From Candidatus Helarchaeota archaeon (GTDB lineage: Archaea; Asgardarchaeota; Lokiarchaeia; Helarchaeales; RDOG01), in NCBI GenBank assembly GCA_019058315.1, contig JAHPZH010000006.1:107052-139051 (forward strand): 32,000 bases of DNA, given 5' to 3'. The notes under the pieces are model-generated. The model worked only from the letters and a program-made list of their open reading frames with translations. It did no database searches and was not told the DNA's origin. Below, one piece after another: positions 4,314 to 31,965 of this stretch (positions within the stretch are counted from its first letter, which is position 1; each line of letters begins with the position of its first letter). A program made the translations under genes and the position numbers.

Positions 4314-5204
4314 CTAATCTTGAGATTCAACAGATCTAGACCATTCATCAATTGCATTGGATAAAATTGAAACCAAATTTTCACGAAAAGTTGGATTTAT
4401 TGCTACCATAGAATAACAAGGAACACCTAATAATCGTTCAATTAATTTTGGTTTCATTGCCCTCGGCATATCTTGCTTATTAGCGATTCCAACCGTATGA
4501 AGTATTCTCTCTTGTTGTTTTTGTCTTATTATTTCTAAATATACCTTTTTTGTTTCCATCACATTTTCAACAGTACTATCTGTCACTAATAAGACAATGT
4601 TAGTTCCACGTAATAAAAAAGTCCATAAAGGAGTATATCTCTCCTGACCAGCAAAATCCCAAATTATTACTTCAAAACGGTCAGATAAACCAGTTAATCT
4701 TTTTACATCAACTGCAATTGTTGGATTATAATCTAATGGAACCTCAGTTCCTCTCATCAAATTAAGCATTGTTGTCTTTCCAACACCACCAAACCCTACA
4801 AGCGCAATTTTGATAATTCCCATTAATATTTTTTCTAGACTTGTATTAAAACCATCAAAAGCACTTGAATCCCTTCCATCCCAACCCAAAGCTTGTATAC
4901 CAAAATCTTCTACAAAAGAATCTCTTGTTCGTTTTAATCTCTCTCTCAATCCTAAGTCATCATCGCCTTCATCTGCACAAAAAACGAATAAATAATCCCT
5001 ATATCTTCCAGGTCCTGCAGTATAAACAAATTTTAAACGTCCAGTAACCACTGATTTAATTTCTCCTTCTGATAAAGACCCTGCAAATGAACTTACAGCA
5101 CTAAGAAAAACTGAGACAAGACTATCATCAACTTTAACGCTGCCATAGGTTTTATGGAATAAAATTGTTCCATCACTTCTGATAATGTAAACATGGTTTA
5201 TCAT
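4314..5204 (-). CDS. Small Ras/Arf-superfamily GTPase fused to an N-terminal longin/roadblock-like domain
   Basis: The C-terminal half has G1 LVGFGGVGKTT, G2 NPTIAVD, G3 WDFAGQERY and G4 NKQD. The N-terminal ~125 aa (MINHVYIIRSDGTILFHKTYG...LFVFCADEGDD) have the alternating beta/alpha pattern of longin/roadblock (MglB-like) domains. Confidence 0.75.
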   Translation of the reverse strand: MINHVYIIRSDGTILFHKTYGSVKVDDSLVSVFLSAVSSFAGSLSEGEIKSVVTGRLKFVYTAGPGRYRDYLFVFCADEGDDDLGLRERLKRTRDSFVEDFGIQALGWDGRDSSAFDGFNTSLEKILMGIIKIALVGFGGVGKTTMLNLMRGTEVPLDYNPTIAVDVKRLTGLSDRFEVIIWDFAGQERYTPLWTFLLRGTNIVLLVTDSTVENVMETKKVYLEIIRQKQQERILHTVGIANKQDMPRAMKPKLIERLLGVPCYSMVAINPTFRENLVSILSNAIDEWSRSVESQD

Positions 5205-5582: not shown

Positions 5583-6887
5583 ATGAGAGAAGTATTTTCT
5601 AATAATAAATTGCTTTACATGTATAATCACTTAAAAATAAATAATCCGAATAAAATTCCTGAAAAAATATATATTTGGGATGAAACACTTCGTGATGGTG
5701 AACAAACACCTGGAGTTAACTTATCATTTGAGCAAAAACTTAACATCGCAAAATTATTGGATGAAATTGGGATTAGCGTTATAGCTGTAGGTTTTCCGGC
5801 CGTTTCTGAATCTGAGAAAAAAATTGTTAGTGCTATAGCTAAAGAAAAGTTTCAGGCAAAAATAGCAGGAGCAGCTAGGGCTAAAAAAAGTGATATCGAT
5901 GATTCTCTTCAATGTGATATTGATGAAATTCCAATTTTCTTTCCAACAAGTAAATTGGCTTTAAAAAAAGTATTAAATAAAGATATTAATGATTCAATTA
6001 AAATTGTTTCAAACGCCATTGAATATGCAGTTGATCATGGTGTAATTACTGATTTCGTTGCAATGGATGCTACTAGAACTGAGTTTGAGACTCTTTTAAA
6101 ATTTCTTCATACAGCAATCAAATGTGGTGCGAATAAAATAATAATTGCTGATACTGTTGGAATAATGCGTCCATTATCCATGTCTAATTTAATTAAAAAA
6201 TTACGTGAGGATGAACTTATAAAAAAATCAACTATATCAATTCATGCCCATAATGACTTTGGGCTTGCAGTTTCAAATTCCTTGGCAGGAATAGAAATGG
6301 GAGCAAATTTTCCTCATGTCTGTGTAAACGGATATGGAGAAAGAAGTGGAAATGCTTCATTAGAAGAAATGGTTTTAGCTTTAGAAATATTATATAATAA
6401 AAAGACGCTAAAAAAAGAAAAAATATTCGAATTATCTAAATTAGTGGAGGAATATTTTGGCTTACCTATTTCTGTTCATCATCCAATAACTGGGTTTAAC
6501 AGTTTCTGTCATGAAAGTGGTCTACATGTAGATGCGATCTTACGAGGGGGACCTGAAACTATTGAACCTTTTGATCCAAGAATAATTGGTAGACAAAGAC
6601 ACTTTTACATGGGAAAATTCTCAGGAAGGAAAAATATAGAATGGATTCTCGATAAATTAGGAATTAAAGCAAATCCTGAACAAGTATTACAAATACTTTA
6701 TCAAGTTAAAAGCAAAGATATTAGCAATTCGATTAAAAAATCGAAAGCATTAATGGAATTATTTGAAGAAAAAATTAATCAAATATATAAAGCGTTTTCA
6801 GCTTTGGAATTTCTTAAAATCGTTGAATCTGTGACCAAACAAAAAATCTCTATTTCTAAATTAACCGAATATAATGAAATCATCTAA
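5583..6887 (+). CDS. 2-isopropylmalate / homocitrate / citramalate synthase family enzyme (HMGL-like DRE-TIM)
   Basis: Signature motifs are WDETLRDGEQTPGV and IHAHNDFGLAVSNSLAGIEMGA. At 434 aa it is shorter than LeuA forms that carry the full regulatory domain. The substrate cannot be assigned from sequence alone. The start may be the downstream M13. Confidence 0.8.
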   Translation: MREVFSNNKLLYMYNHLKINNPNKIPEKIYIWDETLRDGEQTPGVNLSFEQKLNIAKLLDEIGISVIAVGFPAVSESEKKIVSAIAKEKFQAKIAGAARAKKSDIDDSLQCDIDEIPIFFPTSKLALKKVLNKDINDSIKIVSNAIEYAVDHGVITDFVAMDATRTEFETLLKFLHTAIKCGANKIIIADTVGIMRPLSMSNLIKKLREDELIKKSTISIHAHNDFGLAVSNSLAGIEMGANFPHVCVNGYGERSGNASLEEMVLALEILYNKKTLKKEKIFELSKLVEEYFGLPISVHHPITGFNSFCHESGLHVDAILRGGPETIEPFDPRIIGRQRHFYMGKFSGRKNIEWILDKLGIKANPEQVLQILYQVKSKDISNSIKKSKALMELFEEKINQIYKAFSALEFLKIVESVTKQKISISKLTEYNEII

Positions 6888-6900
6888 ATTTTCCTAATTC

Positions 6901-7584
6901 TTAAATTATTTTAATAAATATAATCAATAAATTTCCTATTATTAAAGTAAATACGAAAAAGGTCATTATTTGTAAAATTTCTTTGCTTTTTTTTACTTTT
7001 AAACAAATATTATTGGATTTTTCTAGATGTATTTTATTTTTTAAGATTTTAGTATCCAAAGTCACCATAATTAATGAAAAAAAGAGTATACCTAATATTA
7101 GACATAAAATAAAATGTAAAAAAAGCTCGATTATTATGAATTGATTTGAAATTTGAACAAATAATTTAATATAATTGTCAAAAATGTAAATAATTGAAAT
7201 GATATTAAAAAAAAACAATATTTTTTTCTGAAATCGACAAGATTTGTTATGTCTAATAAATAAATCTTCTACGGATTTTTCATTTGAAATCCTTTTAATC
7301 GGACCTTTAATGGTATAATAAAGAATATTCAAATTAAATTCAAAAAAAATAATTGAAATAGTAAATATCAAAAAGAATAAGTCTGATTTTAAAAAATTGA
7401 TTCCTCCCATTCCTTCAAAACCTTTTTGCAAACCTAAAGAGTAATCAAAATGAATTAGTTCTACTAAAAAAAAGAAAATCAAAGAAAGATAGAAAGCGGA
7501 TGAGCTTAGAATTAAAAGTTTTTTTTCTTTTAGACTCCAAGTCTCTAAATATTCAGTTAATAATTTTTTATTGAAATTCCTCAT
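6901..7584 (-). CDS. Hypothetical polytopic membrane protein
   Basis: A 227-aa ORF with about six long Ile/Leu/Phe-rich hydrophobic segments. No recognisable motif. Confidence 0.45.
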   Translation of the reverse strand: MRNFNKKLLTEYLETWSLKEKKLLILSSSAFYLSLIFFFLVELIHFDYSLGLQKGFEGMGGINFLKSDLFFLIFTISIIFFEFNLNILYYTIKGPIKRISNEKSVEDLFIRHNKSCRFQKKILFFFNIISIIYIFDNYIKLFVQISNQFIIIELFLHFILCLILGILFFSLIMVTLDTKILKNKIHLEKSNNICLKVKKSKEILQIMTFFVFTLIIGNLLIIFIKII

Positions 7585-7795
7585 TTAATCTTTCCGGGAT
7601 AAAATTTTTTAAATATTTATTAAAAATAATTCAATTAAATTAAATAATATCGTGTTATTTACTATTTTGAATTAAAAATTAAATTTAAAATCGTAAATAC
7701 TTTTAAATTAATAGTCAATAATTATTTAACTTCCTTTAAGTAAAAAACATAAATACCAAGTTTTTAATTATTCTAGTCGAAACTGGTTGATATTA

Positions 7796-10368: not shown

Positions 10369-10550
10369 AAATCAAACCATTTGTATTTTTTTTTAAAATT
10401 CTTTAAATAATCTAAGAAATAATATAAAAACTACCAGTTTAACCCTACAAAATATAATGATAATGAAGTGACTTAAAAGAGAAAGAATTAATAATGATGT
10501 TAATAATAAATTATTAATTTTTACTTAATTGTGTAGAGTTGCTATATAAT

Positions 10551-10913
10551 ATGTCGTATGATGATTTAGTTAACAATATTATGGCGCAAAATCCGTCAAT
10601 TACGGCTATTGCTATCGAAAGTAACGGGGCAATCATTTATCAAACATCTAATTGGGATCTTTCGGGAGATATTTCATCGGTAATTGGTCTATGGAGCTCA
10701 AGTCAAGGTGGTGGATCACTCAATATTCAAGGAATTAAATATATTTGTTTAGAAGTAATCCCTGAACGTCTAATTGCTACAAATGTTCAAGGACAAGGAC
10801 ATATCGTAGCTTTTAAAGGAAATAGTGGGAATCGAATAATAACTTACGTAAGTCCCGATGGCGATGCACGAGGTGCTCTTGCAGTCTTAAACTCAATGGC
10901 TGCTTATATTTAA
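10551..10913 (+). CDS. Profilin (Asgard-type)
   Basis: About 120 aa with the profilin template: ITAIAIESNGAIIYQTSNW, SLNIQGIKYICLEV, NVQGQGHIVAFKG, IITYVSP, GALAVLNSMAAYI. ATG at 10551; the ORF track extends to a TTG at 10539. Confidence 0.75.
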   Translation: MSYDDLVNNIMAQNPSITAIAIESNGAIIYQTSNWDLSGDISSVIGLWSSSQGGGSLNIQGIKYICLEVIPERLIATNVQGQGHIVAFKGNSGNRIITYVSPDGDARGALAVLNSMAAYI

Positions 10914-11068
10914 TTTCAATTTTGTTATATTTTTTTATTTTCAACAAATTATTTAATAAAAAAATTTATTCTTACAATTTTTAATAATTTAGAATTATTT
11001 AATTTGAAAATAATTATTTATATTTTAAGAACACAAGATAACATTAGTAAGTTTTTAGGTTGGAAATT

Positions 11069-12013
11069 ATGAGCACTGATAGTAAATTCGTGATTATGTT
11101 AGAAATTACTAGTGGAGTTAGTGAAAGACTTCTATTTAATATGGAAAGTCTGAAAGATGATAATATTGTAGCAATAATGGATGAGATCCATGATGTAATA
11201 TGGTTATGGATGGGAAAAAACACAGGATTGGTTCAAAGAAGGGGATCTATGCGTGCAGCAAGAAGTTTAAAGGCTTATGGTCATGAAATAAGCCCTTATA
11301 TTGTTGGTAGAAAATTAAAAGATGTGTTAGATGTAAGAGGAGATTCTATTGAATCTGATGCGGAACAAAAACAAAGATTTGAACAAGTTTTAAATCTTTT
11401 TAATACCGAACATAATTTAAAATTCGAAGGCGTTCTTGCTGAATATACAGGTATTGGTGCAGGAGCATCTAATATTAAATATGGACTTACAACTGAACAA
11501 AGAAGCGAATTAGTAAAAGCGGCTCTTGCTGCACCAACTGCAGGAGATGATACCCGAAAAATTGAACAAATTGTTGGAGATTTTCGTCCGCCACCTCCAC
11601 CAGAATCAAGTACTGCAAAGGTTATCCCTAAATATCAAGAAAATGTATCTTCTGTTCCAATAAAAACAGCCCCCAAACCAGTTTCACCAACCCCTGCGAC
11701 CCCAACTAAGACAGTAACAATCCAACAAAGGGCCCCTATAGATGAAAACGTTTTAGGTGAAATTAAAGGGTCAATTTTAATAAATGCGATTTTAAGTAAA
11801 TTTAATGAACTTTTTGTAGGAGTCTCAAAAAGTCCTGATGGTTCAAAAACCTATAGCATAGAGGGTCCTAATGGTGAGACTTGTAAATTTAACATAAAAG
11901 GGTCTAATTTAAGTTTTTTGCCAGGATCTTGGGAGAAAATTGCTCCTAATATAAAACAAGAGATTCAAAAACTGTTTTTAGATCGTGTACAATTACTAAT
12001 TAAAAATAATTAA
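11069..12013 (+). CDS. Gelsolin/cofilin-fold domain protein with a proline-rich linker and a C-terminal domain of unknown function (1-domain gelsolin plus X architecture)
   Basis: The N-terminal ~100 aa fit the gelsolin repeat pattern: FVIMLEI...LFNMESLKDDNIVAIMDEIHDVIWLWMGKNTGLVQRRGSMRAARSLKAYG...RFEQVLNLF. A low-complexity linker follows, with PPPPP at 11588-11602 and a Pro/Thr/Ser-rich stretch. The last ~90 aa are mainly beta in character and have no recognised motif. Confidence 0.6.
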   Translation: MSTDSKFVIMLEITSGVSERLLFNMESLKDDNIVAIMDEIHDVIWLWMGKNTGLVQRRGSMRAARSLKAYGHEISPYIVGRKLKDVLDVRGDSIESDAEQKQRFEQVLNLFNTEHNLKFEGVLAEYTGIGAGASNIKYGLTTEQRSELVKAALAAPTAGDDTRKIEQIVGDFRPPPPPESSTAKVIPKYQENVSSVPIKTAPKPVSPTPATPTKTVTIQQRAPIDENVLGEIKGSILINAILSKFNELFVGVSKSPDGSKTYSIEGPNGETCKFNIKGSNLSFLPGSWEKIAPNIKQEIQKLFLDRVQLLIKNN

Positions 12014-17414: not shown

Positions 17415-17540
17415 TGGAGCCTCAGCCGGGGAACGATCCCGGGACCTTTGCCTTTCTGGCAGATATTATTACCAGGGCAACGCTTTACCGTTGAAATTTT
17501 CAGATCGGCATGATTTTTCTACCAACTGAGCTACTGAGGC
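17415..17540 (-). tRNA. tRNA-Thr(GGU) with two introns (about 34 nt in the D-arm, 16 nt at 37/38); CCA encoded
   Basis: The reverse complement reads GCCTCAG-TA-GCTC-AGTTGGTA-GA[~34 nt]GC-G-TTGCC-CTGGTA[16 nt]A-GGCAA-AGGTC-CCGGG-ATCGTTC-CCCGG-CTGAGGC-T-CCA. The anticodon intron (17469-17454) sits in a BHB with central helix CTGG/CCAG and bulges TAA/AAA. Confidence 0.8.
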
Positions 17541-17550
17541 GTAAATTTAA

Positions 17551-17707
17551 TGGTGCGGGGGATGGGAGTTTCACCAAAATATATAATATTTCGGATTCGA
17601 ACCCATGAACTCCTACGAGACAGGATCTTAAGTCCTGCGCCGTTCGGCACGTTTGTATGACCCCATACAAGTTGTCTCTTTTGTTTTACCAGCTTGGCTA
17701 CCCCCGC
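17551..17707 (-). tRNA. tRNA-Leu(UAA) with two introns (about 40 nt in the D-loop, 28 nt in the T-loop); CCA encoded
   Basis: The reverse complement reads GCGGGGG-TA-GCC-AAGCTGGT..[~40 nt]..GGC-G-CAGGA-CTTAAGA-TCCTG-TCTCGTAGGAGTTC (long variable arm)-ATGGG-TTCGAA[28 nt, 17595-17568]T-CCCAT-CCCCCGC-A-CCA. Confidence 0.8.
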
Positions 17708-17817
17708 AAGGGTATTTTATAATATTTATTTTTAGTTTACAAACTATATTCTTTTCTAAATTGATTACTCAATATAATTTTTAATGAGATTTTCATATTT
17801 AAGATTTAGAATTAAAG

Positions 17818-18016
17818 TGCCGAAGGAGGGCTTTCCGTCCAAATTCTAGTAGCTATTTGGTTTCGGACCCTCGATCTCCGGAATACGCGTTTATGGAGCT
17901 AAATCCGATAACTTTATGAGTCCGGCGCGTATTCTTCTTGATCATAATAGATCAAGATTTCTAACCAGGTTTCTCTCCAAGAAAGCTGAGCTTTCCGGGA
18001 CCTAAGCTACTTCGGC
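17818..18016 (-). tRNA. tRNA with CAU anticodon (elongator Met or Ile2), apparently four introns; no encoded CCA; atypical T-loop
   Basis: The reverse complement reads GCCGAAG-TA-GCTTAG[~32 nt]CCTGGTTAGA[~31 nt]GC-G-CCGGA-CTCATA[~31 nt]-TCCGG-AGATC-GAGGG-TCCGAA[30 nt, 17861-17832]G-CCCTC-CTTCGGC-A. That is 199 nt for a tRNA of about 75 nt. The exon borders in the D-arm and anticodon loop are approximate. Confidence 0.55.
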
Positions 18017-18123
18017 TATGTTAATTCTTACAAGCTTTATTAAAATAACCTTAGTTTATAGAGTTTACTATTATTTATATTAAACCTTTTTCTTAAAGAA
18101 ATGAGTAAAACTAATTAAATGAA

Positions 18124-18199
18124 TGGAGCCTCTGGGGGGATTCGAACCCCCGACCATTGGCTTACAAGGCCAGCGCTCTACCAACTGAGCCACAGAGGC
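18124..18199 (-). tRNA. tRNA-Thr(UGU), intron-less, CCA encoded
   Basis: The reverse complement reads GCCTCTG-TG-GCTC-AGTTGGTA-GAGC-G-CTGGC-CTTGTAA-GCCAA-TGGTC-GGGGG-TTCGAAT-CCCCC-CAGAGGC-T-CCA. 76 nt. Confidence 0.95.
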
Positions 18200-18214
18200 A
18201 TTATTTAGATGATA

Positions 18215-18323
18215 TGGTGGGAAAGGTGAGATTTGAACTCACGATCCCGTGGTTTCTTTTTGATCCTTTACAATTTTCGGATATCCCAAGCCACGAATCA
18301 TAGCCAAGCTAGACCACTTTCCC
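18215..18323 (-). tRNA. tRNA-Pro(UGG) with a 31-nt intron at or near 37/38; CCA encoded
   Basis: The reverse complement reads GGGAAAG-TG-GTCT-AGCTTGGCTA-TGAT-T-CGTGG-CTTGGG[31 nt]A-CCACG-GGATC-GTGAG-TTCAAAT-CTCAC-CTTTCCC-A-CCA. Confidence 0.9.
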
Positions 18324-18328
18324 ATATT

Positions 18329-18552
18329 TGGTGGGGTTGAAGGGATTTTCACCGAAATTTCGATTATTTCGGATTTGAACCCTTGATAAGTCCTCTGGAT
18401 AAAACTCGTTCATCCAAACGAGTTACTCCTAGTGGTACGCTCCAAAATTACATCATCTGGAATCAGTATTTTTATTCTATTTTTCTGGAGCCCGTTGTCA
18501 TACCGTGTTTTCTTAAGCTCACAATATGTGAACACATCTAGACCACAACCCC
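18329..18552 (-). tRNA. tRNA-Trp(CCA) with four introns (D-loop ~30 nt, 37/38 61 nt, variable region ~28 nt, T-loop 28 nt); CCA encoded
   Basis: The reverse complement reads GGGGTTG-TG-GTCT-AG[~30 nt]CACGGTA-TGAC-A-ACGGG-CTCCAG[61 nt, 18484-18424]A-CTCGT-[variable region plus ~28 nt]-AAGGG-TTCAAA[28 nt, 18373-18346]T-CCCTT-CAACCCC-A-CCA. The 37/38 and T-loop introns sit in canonical BHBs (CTCC/GGAG and TTCA/TGAA central helices). The other two borders are approximate. Confidence 0.7.
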
Positions 18553-18585
18553 TTTTTATTCAGCTTTTTTAGGAGGTTTTTATGT

Positions 18586-18742
18586 GAGAAAATAATATTT
18601 TACCGTGTTCGGAACGAGAACGGATGGTTCCATTGGCCTATGGCCGACCACGAATGATCAGCTAACTGGATTTCTCGTTGGCTCTCGCACAACAGAAGTT
18701 CCAATAACGCACCAAATGTTTAATTCGGCATATTATTTCCTC
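18586..18742 (-). other. Bulge-helix-bulge processing structure enclosing the permuted 5S
   Basis: A 13-bp outer stem pairs 18742-18730 (GAGGAAATAATAT) with 18598-18586 (ATATTATTTTCTC). The 4-bp central helix is GCCG (18729-18726) / CGGT (18605-18602). The 3-nt bulges are AAT (18725-18723) and AAA (18601-18599). Confidence 0.55.
18600..18723 (-). rRNA. 5S rRNA gene, circularly permuted (3' half encoded upstream of the 5' half, joined by a UUCG loop)
   Basis: 18650->18603 reads TGGTCGGCCATAGGCCAATGGAACCATCCGTTCTCGTTCCGAACACGG, a 5S 5' half. 18723->18655 supplies the 3' half, ending GCTGATCA, which pairs with the TGGTCGGC start across the TTCG at 18654-18651. Rotated, the sequence is about 120 nt with all five 5S helices. 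See the finding for details. Confidence 0.6.
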
Positions 18743-19143
18743 TTTTTCTAAGGCGCCATAAATGTTTTCCGTTTTATTAATCATTTTCCATAATTTAAAT
18801 TTAAACTTCAATTTTTAAAAATTCTAAAGAATTAATTTAAAATTTTTCTCCATTACTTTTAACTTATTCTAATTTGAAATTTTATGTAAGCTATTAAACC
18901 AATAATTTATTATTTTCATCATATAACTTAATGCTTGACGATTTTAAATATTTGGAATAAAATCCAACTGTGTATTATTAACTTAAAATTATTAGTTTCT
19001 TAAAATAAAATAGAAAAATATTCATAAATTGATTTTGTATTCAAAAAATATATCTAAAATTTTTCTAAATTTGTTAAAATTAATAAAATTAGGTGAATTT
19101 TACATCCCTATATAATTCAATCAAATAATAATTGTGATTAAAG

Positions 19144-31102: not shown

Positions 31103-31109
31103 TTTTTTT
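31084..31109 (+). terminator. Hairpin plus T7 tract (candidate archaeal terminator of the upstream RNA)
   Basis: GGGGTACAGCCAGCTCCCC is followed by TTTTTTT (31103-31109). Confidence 0.35.
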
Positions 31110-31965
31110 AATTGACAAGGATATCAAGACAAACATGATTTACATGGGGACGATAAGATTTTATAAATTCTATATGGTCTAATTTAGCCTTTTTATTCAT
31201 TTCTTTGTTAATAGAAGAAACATCTTCTAATAAAATTTCGGGAGGATCTGAATCTCTTAAAAGTCCTTCATAATGAATTATGCATTTTTCTGGATTTAAT
31301 ACCTGAAATGCAGTGGGTAATGCATCTTTAGGGGATGGCAATAATCCCATAATTATTCTATCTGCTTTTTCTTTGATTTTCAAAGCCTCAGTCTTACAAT
31401 CTCCTAAAATTGGAATAATTTTATCCGAAACTTTATTAATTTGAATATTTTCAACTAAGTAATTATAAGCAATTGGATTCATTTCAAAAGCAAATATCTT
31501 TTTTGGATTAGCTAATCTTGCAATATTAAGGCAAAAATAACCTATTCCAGCAAAAAAATCAAAAATAATTTCATTTTCTTTAACTAATTTGGGATATCTT
31601 TTTCGCTCATTTATGTTTCCTTTAGCAAACATTATTTTACTTACATCCAGTTTATACAAGGTCCCATGTTCTTTATGAATTGTTTCAGTTGACTTTCCGA
31701 CGACTAATTCAATTTGTGGAGTTCGAAATTGACTATAAATTGCACCTTTATTGAGACAAATAGCATCGCAATTCGAAACAATATTTTGAACAGCTTCAGC
31801 AATAACTTTCTTATTTTTCCATAATTGGTTCTTAAGGTTTAATATAACAATTGTACCAATTTGTTGGAAACCCGAAGGAAGGAATTTCATCTCATTTTCA
31901 TTTAAAATTCCTTTTAACGCTTCTCGCAACTTTTTTTTAAAAGAACTCTTCACTTCAATAACCAA
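31108..31965 (-). CDS. Trm5/Taw2 (Met-10+) family tRNA position-37 modification enzyme (m1G37 methyltransferase or wyosine aminocarboxypropyltransferase)
   Basis: YKLDVSKIMFAKGNINERKR, the SAM-binding FDFFAGIGYFCLNIA and DRIIMGLLPSP. The 285-aa size and layout resemble the short Taw2-type members. TTG start. Confidence 0.75.
   Translation of the reverse strand: MVIEVKSSFKKKLREALKGILNENEMKFLPSGFQQIGTIVILNLKNQLWKNKKVIAEAVQNIVSNCDAICLNKGAIYSQFRTPQIELVVGKSTETIHKEHGTLYKLDVSKIMFAKGNINERKRYPKLVKENEIIFDFFAGIGYFCLNIARLANPKKIFAFEMNPIAYNYLVENIQINKVSDKIIPILGDCKTEALKIKEKADRIIMGLLPSPKDALPTAFQVLNPEKCIIHYEGLLRDSDPPEILLEDVSSINKEMNKKAKLDHIEFIKSYRPHVNHVCLDILVN

Follow-up and report, generated by a model that had tools for sequence, protein, structure and literature searches.

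The closest described counterparts of the locus analyzed here, a six-gene tRNA array on the minus strand of a 32,000-nucleotide (nt) stretch of contig JAHPZH010000006.1 (hereafter the window), are tRNA genes of other Asgard archaea. In the complete genomes of Atabeyarchaeia and Freyarchaeia introns interrupt 92–95% of the tRNA genes, with several per gene in over half of them and with many non-canonical positions (Valentin-Alvarado et al. 2024, PMC11291895); Supplementary Data 4 of that study lists genes with four introns, a Trp gene of 231 nt and a CAU (Ile2) gene among them. Like the array, these are multi-intron Asgard genes with up to four introns each that are under-detected by tRNAscan-type tools. 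Unlike them, the array belongs to a marine or sediment Helarchaeota-like lineage within Lokiarchaeia sensu lato, with 28% GC and known from 32 kb, and the present comparison goes beyond the earlier study in following intron presence and absence across five close relatives, in detecting shared intron families and in providing statistics for the bulge-helix-bulge (BHB) motifs at the splice sites. Intron-saturated Asgard tRNA genes are already known, and the array extends them to a Helarchaeota-like lineage; the novel element of the locus is a circularly permuted 5S rRNA gene just upstream of the array.

Multi-intron tRNA genes and intron transposition have also been described in the Thermoproteales (Sugahara 2008; Fujishima 2010; reviewed in PMC4090602). 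As in the array, short introns with BHB, hBH or HBh' junctions (h, H and h' being the outer, central and inner helices and B a bulge) occupy D-arm, anticodon, variable-region and T-loop sites, and near-identical introns sit in different tRNA genes; the Thermoproteales possess a broad-specificity (αβ)2 endonuclease of the kind that we infer for the host of the array. They differ in being TACK hyperthermophiles for which up to three introns per gene are described (PMC4090602), against four in two of the genes here, and, unlike in the Thermoproteales, gain and loss is visible here between genomes whose neighbor protein is 84–95% identical. A first-pass annotation of the window, made from the letters of the DNA, had placed four introns in one gene at or beyond the known extreme. 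This stands relative to the Thermoproteales, whereas relative to the Asgard archaea it is out of date because four-intron genes have been tabulated there (PMC11291895). Multiple non-canonical introns with BHB-like junctions in an AT-rich setting are shared as well with Cyanidioschyzon merolae and algal nucleomorphs (PMC3728597; Kawach 2005), but those genes are eukaryotic and the context here is archaeal (ribosomal protein L2, PheRS and Hel308 genes; CCA encoded in five of six tRNA genes).

Read from 18552 to 17415, the array runs Trp(CCA), Pro(UGG), Thr(UGU), CAU, Leu(UAA) and Thr(GGU), with gene lengths of 224, 109, 76, 199, 157 and 126 nt and intervening spacers of 5, 15, 107, 110 and 10 nt. 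The inserts per gene number 4, 1, 0, 4, 2 and 2, a total of 13, and add 147, 31, 0, 124, 69–71 and 50 nt in the same order. Order, strand, anticodons and lengths had been proposed by the first-pass annotation and are borne out by the sequence parse and by ARAGORN after splicing, as is its remark that some spacers measure 5–10 nt; its estimate of about 13 introns becomes exactly 13 with the comparative data, and its excess lengths match, the 69 nt that it gave for Leu lying at the lower end of our range. Default ARAGORN, a check that the annotation had proposed, detects only the intronless Thr(UGU) gene in the unspliced array, and the Rfam tRNA model finds Thr(UGU) and Pro (the latter with a 34-nt insert) and nothing more. 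After in-silico splicing ARAGORN calls all six, as Trp, Pro, Thr, Met(CAU), Leu and Thr. Interruption of this kind explains the incomplete tRNA sets that standard finders report for such genomes; incomplete sets in Asgard metagenome-assembled genomes had already been suspected to hide disrupted genes (PMC5829648).

Introns are present in five of the six genes, at least two of them in four genes and four in each of two (Trp and CAU). They fall in the D-arm or D-loop of four genes (Trp 15/16, CAU 15/16 and 23/24, Leu D-loop, Thr(GGU) 23/24), in the anticodon loop of four (37/38 in Trp, Pro and Thr(GGU); 38/39 or 37/38 in CAU), at T-loop site 59/60 of three (Trp, CAU and Leu) and at 43/44 of Trp, which is the block that the first-pass annotation had assigned to the variable region. 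Its D-arm and T-loop assignments also stand; four genes do have an anticodon-loop insert, but its 37/38 placement is uncertain for CAU, where 38/39 is possible. Depending on that choice, 9 or 10 of the 13 introns are non-canonical. The exons of all six tRNAs are collinear, the genes being neither split nor permuted. The 3' CCA is encoded by five of the six genes and is lacking in the CAU gene (..GGCA-CTT; 17815–17818), and a regex scan of the window outside the array returned no further tRNA-like T-arms.

We take the array to consist of six functional tRNA genes, five of which are interrupted by 13 protein-spliced archaeal introns of 16–61 nt, and assign this reading a probability of about 0.88. 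Three lines of evidence agree in identifying the inserts as introns, many of them non-canonical and up to four per gene, as the first-pass annotation had proposed: comparison with relatives, junction statistics and in-silico splicing. For the comparison, syntenic loci were located through homologues of a neighboring protein, giving L011 (95% identity), L012 (88%), L013 (86%) and L014 (84%), all of which carry the same six tRNA genes between the same flanking genes. Scans for the DUF1512 protein in genome and metagenome contigs returned only relatives of about 50% identity, which have a normal 5S gene, and a locus (L003) without synteny. The intergenic region was compared as an alignment of five genomes, the window plus L011–L014. 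Invariant columns amount to 426/467 in exons, 198/321 in introns and 94/193 in spacers. Exon identity is 97.5% to L013 and 92.1% to L014, against 75.9% and 71.6% for the introns, and GC is 58% in exons and 34% in introns. The insert blocks coincide with indel differences and low conservation in the four independent related assemblies.

These data bear directly on whether the array might instead hold decaying tRNA pseudogenes, with functional intron-poor copies elsewhere in the genome. The failure of default ARAGORN and Rfam to see most of the genes and the non-standard T-loops predicted for two of them would fit decay. However, 91% of exon positions do not vary among the five genomes while inserts and spacers drift, and RNAalifold on the spliced alignments finds 9 of 143 cloverleaf pairs altered on both sides with pairing kept, for example in the acceptor stems of Trp and Thr(GGU) and in the Trp and Pro T-stems of L014. 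All 75 exon positions of the CAU gene are invariant despite its four inserts, the unusual T-loops are themselves conserved, the inserts lie at BHB-competent sites far above chance, and in complete Asgard genomes with this architecture each anticodon is represented by one gene copy. As judged from the alignments, the exons are shown to be under purifying selection with compensatory changes, and we regard decay as very improbable.

The source of the DNA is a metagenome assembly, which raises the question of whether the inserts are assembly or chimera artifacts. We give this almost no weight: the same architecture recurs in five independent assemblies from different projects and on contigs of several other sediment metagenomes, and in the source run the region is spanned by one 77.6-kb contig with an even depth of 19.7.

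The relatives also provide intron-less alleles that are identical to the predicted spliced sequence. Across the five syntenic arrays there are 18 distinct intron sites, with 12–15 introns per array, and eight introns are precisely present or absent (Trp 15/16, Trp 59/60, a Pro D-loop site, two Pro T-loop sites, Thr(UGU) 59/60, a Leu D-arm site and Leu 59/60). The Trp T-loop intron occurs only in the window and L013 and is exactly absent from L011, L012 and L014. A 37-nt Pro D-loop intron is found in L011 only and Pro T-loop introns in L013 and L014 only, while the Thr(UGU) gene, intronless in the window, has a 31-nt strict-BHB intron at 59/60 in its L011, L013 and L014 orthologues. L014 alone has an additional Leu D-arm intron and is without the Leu T-loop intron. 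In addition, the Pro 37/38 junction is confirmed by a Pro-like gene on a DNA contig of run X2, which lacks the intron and is joined precisely there. At greater distance (about 52% neighbor identity) the Trp genes of L002 and L008 have inserts at 37/38 and 43/44 only, so that these two Trp introns are old and the D-loop and T-loop introns younger.

Sequence relationships among the introns cross gene boundaries. Identity is 79–86% among the T-loop introns found in Trp (window), Leu (window and L011) and Pro (L014), the value for Leu intron 2 and Trp intron 4 being 79%, and the Pro T-loop intron of L013 is 77% identical, with long identical blocks, to the CAU 23/24 intron, their H partners being GTTC and GTTA; unrelated intron pairs are about 60% identical. 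At least two intron families, as defined by this similarity, occupy different tRNA genes or positions. Since presence/absence differences are combined with families shared across genes and positions, the introns have been gained and lost, apparently by transposition to sites able to pair with the intron 3' end, and the combination is the pattern described as intron transposition in the Thermoproteales. Five close relatives with exact intron gain and loss and two families thus amount to a natural experiment on the mechanism of tRNA-intron transposition. Mobility and shared families would also be expected of self-splicing group I or II introns or of miniature transposable elements. The inserts, however, are far too short (16–61 nt) for a ribozyme core, contain no open reading frame (ORF), and lack terminal inverted repeats or target duplications beyond what BHB pairing needs; no Rfam intron family matches in the array, and the junctions fit BHB geometry. 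An origin as ribozymes or transposable elements is hardly credible.

The junctions were evaluated against the geometry exon-H(4 nt)-bulge(2|1)-h'...h'-H(4 nt)-bulge(2|1)-exon, allowing no variation in bulge size. Since a strict BHB scan by itself recovers 3 of the 13 introns together with many chance hits, H complementarity was tested at the independently inferred junctions. At least three of four H pairs form at 10 of 13 sites and all four at 5 of 13, whereas placing same-length inserts at random in the same genes produced on average 2.9 and 0.46 such sites, and in 5000 trials the observed values were never reached. Over the five genomes 57 of 67 introns, every polymorphic intron among them, have at least three of four H pairs, and the H strand of the intron tracks its exon partner (TGAA with TTCA/TTCG, CGGA with TCCG, GAAT with GTTC/GTTA, GCTA with TAGC). 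The dinucleotide preceding the 3' cut is AA at 7 of the 13 sites, and at 8 if the 43-nt Leu edges described below are adopted. Strict hBHBh' motifs frame three sites (Trp 59/60, Leu 59/60 and Thr(GGU) 37/38), in keeping with the textbook motifs that the first-pass annotation saw at several blocks; CAU 59/60 is near-strict, a 1-nt bulge in h' being its sole departure, an outer helix forms together with H at Trp 37/38 and Pro 37/38, and Trp 15/16, CAU 15/16 and CAU 23/24 are of HBh' type with three of four H pairs. The inserts are genuine archaeal BHB introns.

At three sites H has just two of four pairs in all five genomes, and it may be that only the BHB-bearing inserts are EndA introns while the motif-less ones (the CAU anticodon-loop intron, Thr(GGU) 23/24 and possibly the Leu D-loop intron) are handled otherwise, through ordered splicing, half-motifs or another nuclease. 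A complementarity between two parts of the CAU gene, alternative pairings of an exon and an intron GGTA with TGCC in Thr(GGU), and the unusual conservation of the CAU anticodon-loop intron, each detailed below, all fit such separate handling. Set against this, (αβ)2 EndA is known to accept relaxed hBH and HBh' motifs, and the apparent lack of a motif comes from a scan with fixed bulge sizes at splice positions that were taken from the cloverleaf and may be 1–2 nt off. We consider a separate route for the three introns unlikely, if plainly the strongest of the alternatives.

The tRNA-Trp(CCA) gene (18329–18552; this and all array features below are on the minus strand) is 224 nt long, contains four introns and an encoded CCA, yields 77 nt on splicing and has orthologues in L011–L014; its CCA is encoded in the window and L013 and not in L011, L012 and L014. 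Intron 1 (18508–18537, 30 nt, D-loop 15/16) has a relaxed BHB with three of four H pairs (GTCT/AGAA) and an inner hairpin whose sequence is different in every genome, and is exactly absent in L014. The edges first assigned to it, giving the loop AGATGGTA, were replaced using the intron-less L014 allele. Intron 3 (18390–18417, 28 nt, 43/44) has three of four H pairs, an outer helix of 3 base pairs (bp) and an inner helix of 8 bp, and the distant L008 Trp gene has an intron at the equivalent site. Intron 4 (18346–18373, 28 nt, T-loop 59/60) is framed by a strict hBHBh' motif (h 5, H 4, h' 7).

Trp intron 2 (18424–18484, 61 nt, canonical 37/38) pairs at all four H positions (CTCC/GGAG) next to the anticodon stem. 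It contains two copies of GGAG, either of which is able to act as the central strand of the BHB, and may be nested, as a 44-nt intron plus a 17-nt mini-intron; two GGAG copies are arranged likewise in the distant L008 Trp gene. Across the five genomes the 3' two-thirds of Trp intron 2 are almost invariant and include a conserved CUGA-N6-AUGAUGU, resembling a C'/D' pair with its K-loop, as well as a 9–10-nt complement to the anticodon loop. In euryarchaea the pre-tRNA-Trp intron hosts a box C/D guide RNA (Clouet d'Orval 2001; Singh 2004, as cited in PMC4090602), and the Trp 37/38 intron is likewise long, with CUGA and AUGAUGU six nt apart and a complement to the anticodon loop. Neither a terminal C box nor a terminal D box was found in it, nor a second guide or an Rfam small nucleolar RNA match, and for lack of the terminal boxes the box C/D interpretation was not adopted; the complementarity to the anticodon loop could simply reflect BHB or alternative pairing.

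The tRNA-Pro(UGG) gene (18215–18323, 109 nt; 45.6 bits to the Rfam tRNA model with its insert) has one intron (18254–18284, 31 nt, 37/38; h 7, H three of four), and tRNA-Thr(UGU) (18124–18199, 76 nt) follows as the intronless member of the array. The tRNA(CAU) gene (17818–18016, 199 nt), for elongator Met or Ile2, has four introns. Intron 1 (17970–18001, 32 nt, D-loop 15/16) and intron 2 (17929–17959, 31 nt, D-stem 23/24) each have three of four H pairs, and the inner helix of intron 1 shows compensatory changes from TCCC..GGGA to TTTC..GAAA. A model with two 16-nt introns around a 4-nt CAGC exon in the D-arm, which would have given the gene five introns, was ruled out; because GCTCAGC is unconserved in the relatives, the D-arm insert is a single 32-nt intron. 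Intron 3 (17883–17913, 31 nt, anticodon loop 38/39, or 37/38 with U38) is the best conserved intron of the array and has no recognized BHB. Near-copies of the anticodon stem and loop lie inside it (TCGGA; CTCCATAA), and CGCGTAT at its 3' end is complementary to ATACGCG spanning the 3' end of intron 2 and the next exon, a pairing that hints at coupled or ordered splicing. Intron 4 (17832–17861, 30 nt, T-loop 59/60) pairs at all four H positions (TCCG/CGGA), with h of 5 and h' of 6 interrupted by the 1-nt bulge.

The tRNA-Leu(UAA) gene (17551–17707, 157 nt) has two introns. The exact edges of intron 1 in the D-loop (17643–17687) are uncertain: the best BHB fit is 17643–17685 (43 nt; TGGT AA|A ... 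GCCG AA|C; H four of four), the alternative is 17647–17687 (41 nt), and ARAGORN accepts the tRNA spliced with either. Intron 2 (17568–17595, 28 nt, T-loop 59/60) has a strict hBHBh' motif (h 5, H 4, h' 9). The last gene, tRNA-Thr(GGU) (17415–17540, 126 nt), also has two introns. Intron 1 (17484–17517, 34 nt, D-stem 23/24 or 22/23) has no standard BHB; an exon GGTA and a GGTA at the intron 3' end are each able to pair with TGCC in the intron, giving two alternative helix-bulge half motifs. Intron 2 (17454–17469, 16 nt, canonical 37/38) is framed by a strict hBHBh' motif.

Several observations weigh against the array being a set of functional, spliced tRNA genes. The RNA data consist of Logan contigs of ordinary metatranscriptomes, and no spliced tRNA joint was found among them; the contigs that touch the array are mostly unspliced (Trp, 18321–18494; Leu and Thr(GGU), 17415–17682) at a depth of about 2, and could be precursors or carried-over DNA. 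Run X33 is ambiguous in the same respect. Two of its RNA contigs, from two strains, read TGGTCTAG|CTCGG at the 18505/18538 junction, with the Trp D-loop intron gone and the 37/38 and 43/44 introns kept. The DNA runs show the D-loop intron in several sequence variants and no intron-less form was seen in them; the X33 contigs may be partly spliced RNA from which the D-loop intron was removed first, or may come from an intron-less strain. The mature T-loops predicted for CAU (UCCGAAG) and Thr(GGU) (AUCGUUC) would both be unusual. No convincing BHB is found at the CAU anticodon-loop site, at Thr(GGU) 23/24 or, with the 41-nt edges, at the Leu D-loop. Finally, neither an EndA nor an RtcB gene lies within the 32-kb window.

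Some further details of these RNAs were noted. The 268-nt contig of run X24 covers 17415–17682 on the minus strand unspliced, reaching from within the Leu D-loop intron across the 10-nt spacer as far as the end of Thr(GGU), and would fit either a dicistronic precursor or DNA carry-over. In the predicted mature T-loop of CAU (T-arm 17826–17872, minus strand, interrupted by intron 4) position 55 is C where U is near-universal, and in that of Thr(GGU) (T-arm 17425–17441, minus strand) positions 54 and 58 are A and U; both loops are kept in all five genomes.

For the six genes read as functional and intron-containing, the following processing scheme is proposed. Precursor units would be transcribed, probably as Trp-Pro-Thr, CAU and Leu-Thr, and their exon-intron junctions would fold as strict or relaxed BHB motifs. 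A broad-specificity EndA would cut two nt 3' of each strand of the 4-bp central helix and an RtcB-type ligase would then join the exons. Asgard EndA is reported to be an (αβ)2 enzyme with an L1 loop and relaxed specificity (PMC5829648), and Atabeyarchaeia have two K01170 genes; by analogy with this literature, the host would be expected to possess a broad-specificity endonuclease. While we infer the splicing of the array tRNAs themselves, BHB cut-and-join works in vivo in this lineage, as is seen in the adjacent 5S RNA.

The 5S unit with its leader and trailer spans 18586–18742 on the minus strand, and the circularly permuted gene proper 18600–18723, in which the 3' half (18723–18655) lies upstream of the 5' half (18650–18600). 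The Rfam 5S model matches the 5' half only (18555–18651, 21.6 bits, below threshold) and nhmmer likewise matches only the 5' half in genomic order, the 3'-half-like sequence lying upstream of it. Helix I is capped by a UUCG tetraloop that bridges the natural ends (GCTGATCA-TTCG-TGGTCGGC, hairpin 18662–18643), a model that replaced one with an end-to-end 20-nt linker after alignment to normal 5S genes. On the leader side (18724–18742, minus strand) the BHB comprises an h' strand GAGGAAATAATAT (18742–18730), H GCCG (18729–18726) and the bulge AA|T, with the cut at 18724/18723. On the trailer side (18586–18605, minus strand) H CGGT (18605–18602) is followed by the bulge AA|A, a cut at 18600/18599 and the h' strand ATATTATTTTCTC (18598–18586). 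The two h' strands form a 13-bp helix and the H strands pair as CGGT/GCCG; the motif is of HBh' type because the outer helix h is absent.

The joint between 18600 and 18723 is present in RNA contigs from four metatranscriptomes of four studies. Each contig is 154 nt long, equal to a 124-nt circle plus k-1, the signature of a circular sequence, and the contigs are opened at different rotations and have no coverage of leader or trailer. The joint was not found in the DNA runs covering the site, which continue into the leader. It restores normal 5S order (..CCGAACACGGUAA|UUAAAC..) and lies exactly in the leader/trailer BHB. The same layout is found in L011–L014 and in the distant L015–L018 (58–64% neighbor identity; one labeled Lokiarchaeota), where H is conserved and h' is entirely different yet complementary, and where helix I is capped by UUCG, UGCG, UUUC or UUUG; the permuted arrangement is thus kept, with covariation, throughout a Helarchaeota/Loki-type clade. 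The rotated 5S aligns end to end with normal 5S genes with the same fold, and 16 of 32 pairs are compensatory. No normal 5S gene was found in the L011–L019 loci, while distant relatives have one (65–73 bits) at the same place next to DUF1512. We are confident that the 5S gene is permuted and its product ligated at the BHB. We also lean, by a modest degree, towards the mature ribosome-bound 5S being a covalently closed 124-nt circle with a UUCG-capped helix I and loop C sealed by ligation, a form favored because of the tetraloop cap and the lack of precursor coverage.

Permuted tRNA genes of C. merolae and Thermofilum and the permuted, circular signal recognition particle (SRP) RNA of Thermoproteus (PMC4731332) share with this gene the upstream position of the 3' half and ligation at a leader/trailer BHB, and in the circular SRP RNA, as here, a short loop bridges the natural termini; unlike in those cases, the molecule here is 5S rRNA. 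Minor 5S circles, joined end to end, occur in Sulfolobus and Halobacterium (PMC3326292), organellar 5S can be permuted (PMC4267664), and 5S has been stated not to use the circularization route (PMC12918454). In the literature searched, no archaeal 5S was described as permuted or obligately circular. If the permuted and circular assignments are true, the locus would provide the first permuted archaeal 5S gene and, in its product, the first 5S rRNA that is naturally circular, and endonuclease-ligase cut-and-join would be obligatory in the lineage for core translation RNAs, tRNAs and 5S alike. With a permuted 5S ligated at a BHB, 5S depends here on the circularization pathway and may function as a circle, which bears on ribosome assembly and on the substrate range of EndA and RtcB in the closest archaeal relatives of eukaryotes. 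For annotation, genomes with a permuted 5S appear to lack a 5S gene.

The window has a GC content of 28.5% and encodes archaeal ribosomal protein L2, an ATP-dependent DNA ligase, LarB, LarC, NikR, archaeal PheRS alpha and beta, a Hel308-type helicase and the DUF1512 protein; the exact DUF1512 protein sits on the 77.6-kb Logan contig, which comes from a sediment metagenome. The nearest homologues of a neighbor protein (95%, 86% and 83% identity) carry the NCBI name Candidatus Helarchaeota, and the host is therefore taken to be a Helarchaeota-like Asgard archaeon; these homologues, an Arf/Roc-type GTPase and a weak profilin match together point to an Asgard host. Three genes are candidates for eukaryote-like cytoskeleton and trafficking functions. 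One is the GTPase-domain gene (Arf/Roc/Ras family; 4314–5204, minus strand), and a second is the profilin match (10539–10913, plus strand), which scores 22.5 bits, under the Pfam cut-off of 25. The third, adjoining the profilin-like gene, is a 317-residue ORF (11060–12013, plus strand) with a proline-rich linker and no Pfam match, which looked gelsolin-like by eye only. The interval separating the 5S leader from the DUF1512 gene contains strongly conserved non-coding blocks (18850–19060, minus strand), TTGGATTTTATTCCAAA and AATTTTAAATTAATTCTT among them, which may represent divergent promoters or a small RNA. The window also has a gene for a TRM5/TYW2-family tRNA methyltransferase at 31108–31965 (minus strand); in L015 a gene of this family (6786–7637) lies directly inside the DUF1512 gene cluster, providing a loose link between the tRNA-modification gene and the RNA-gene locus.

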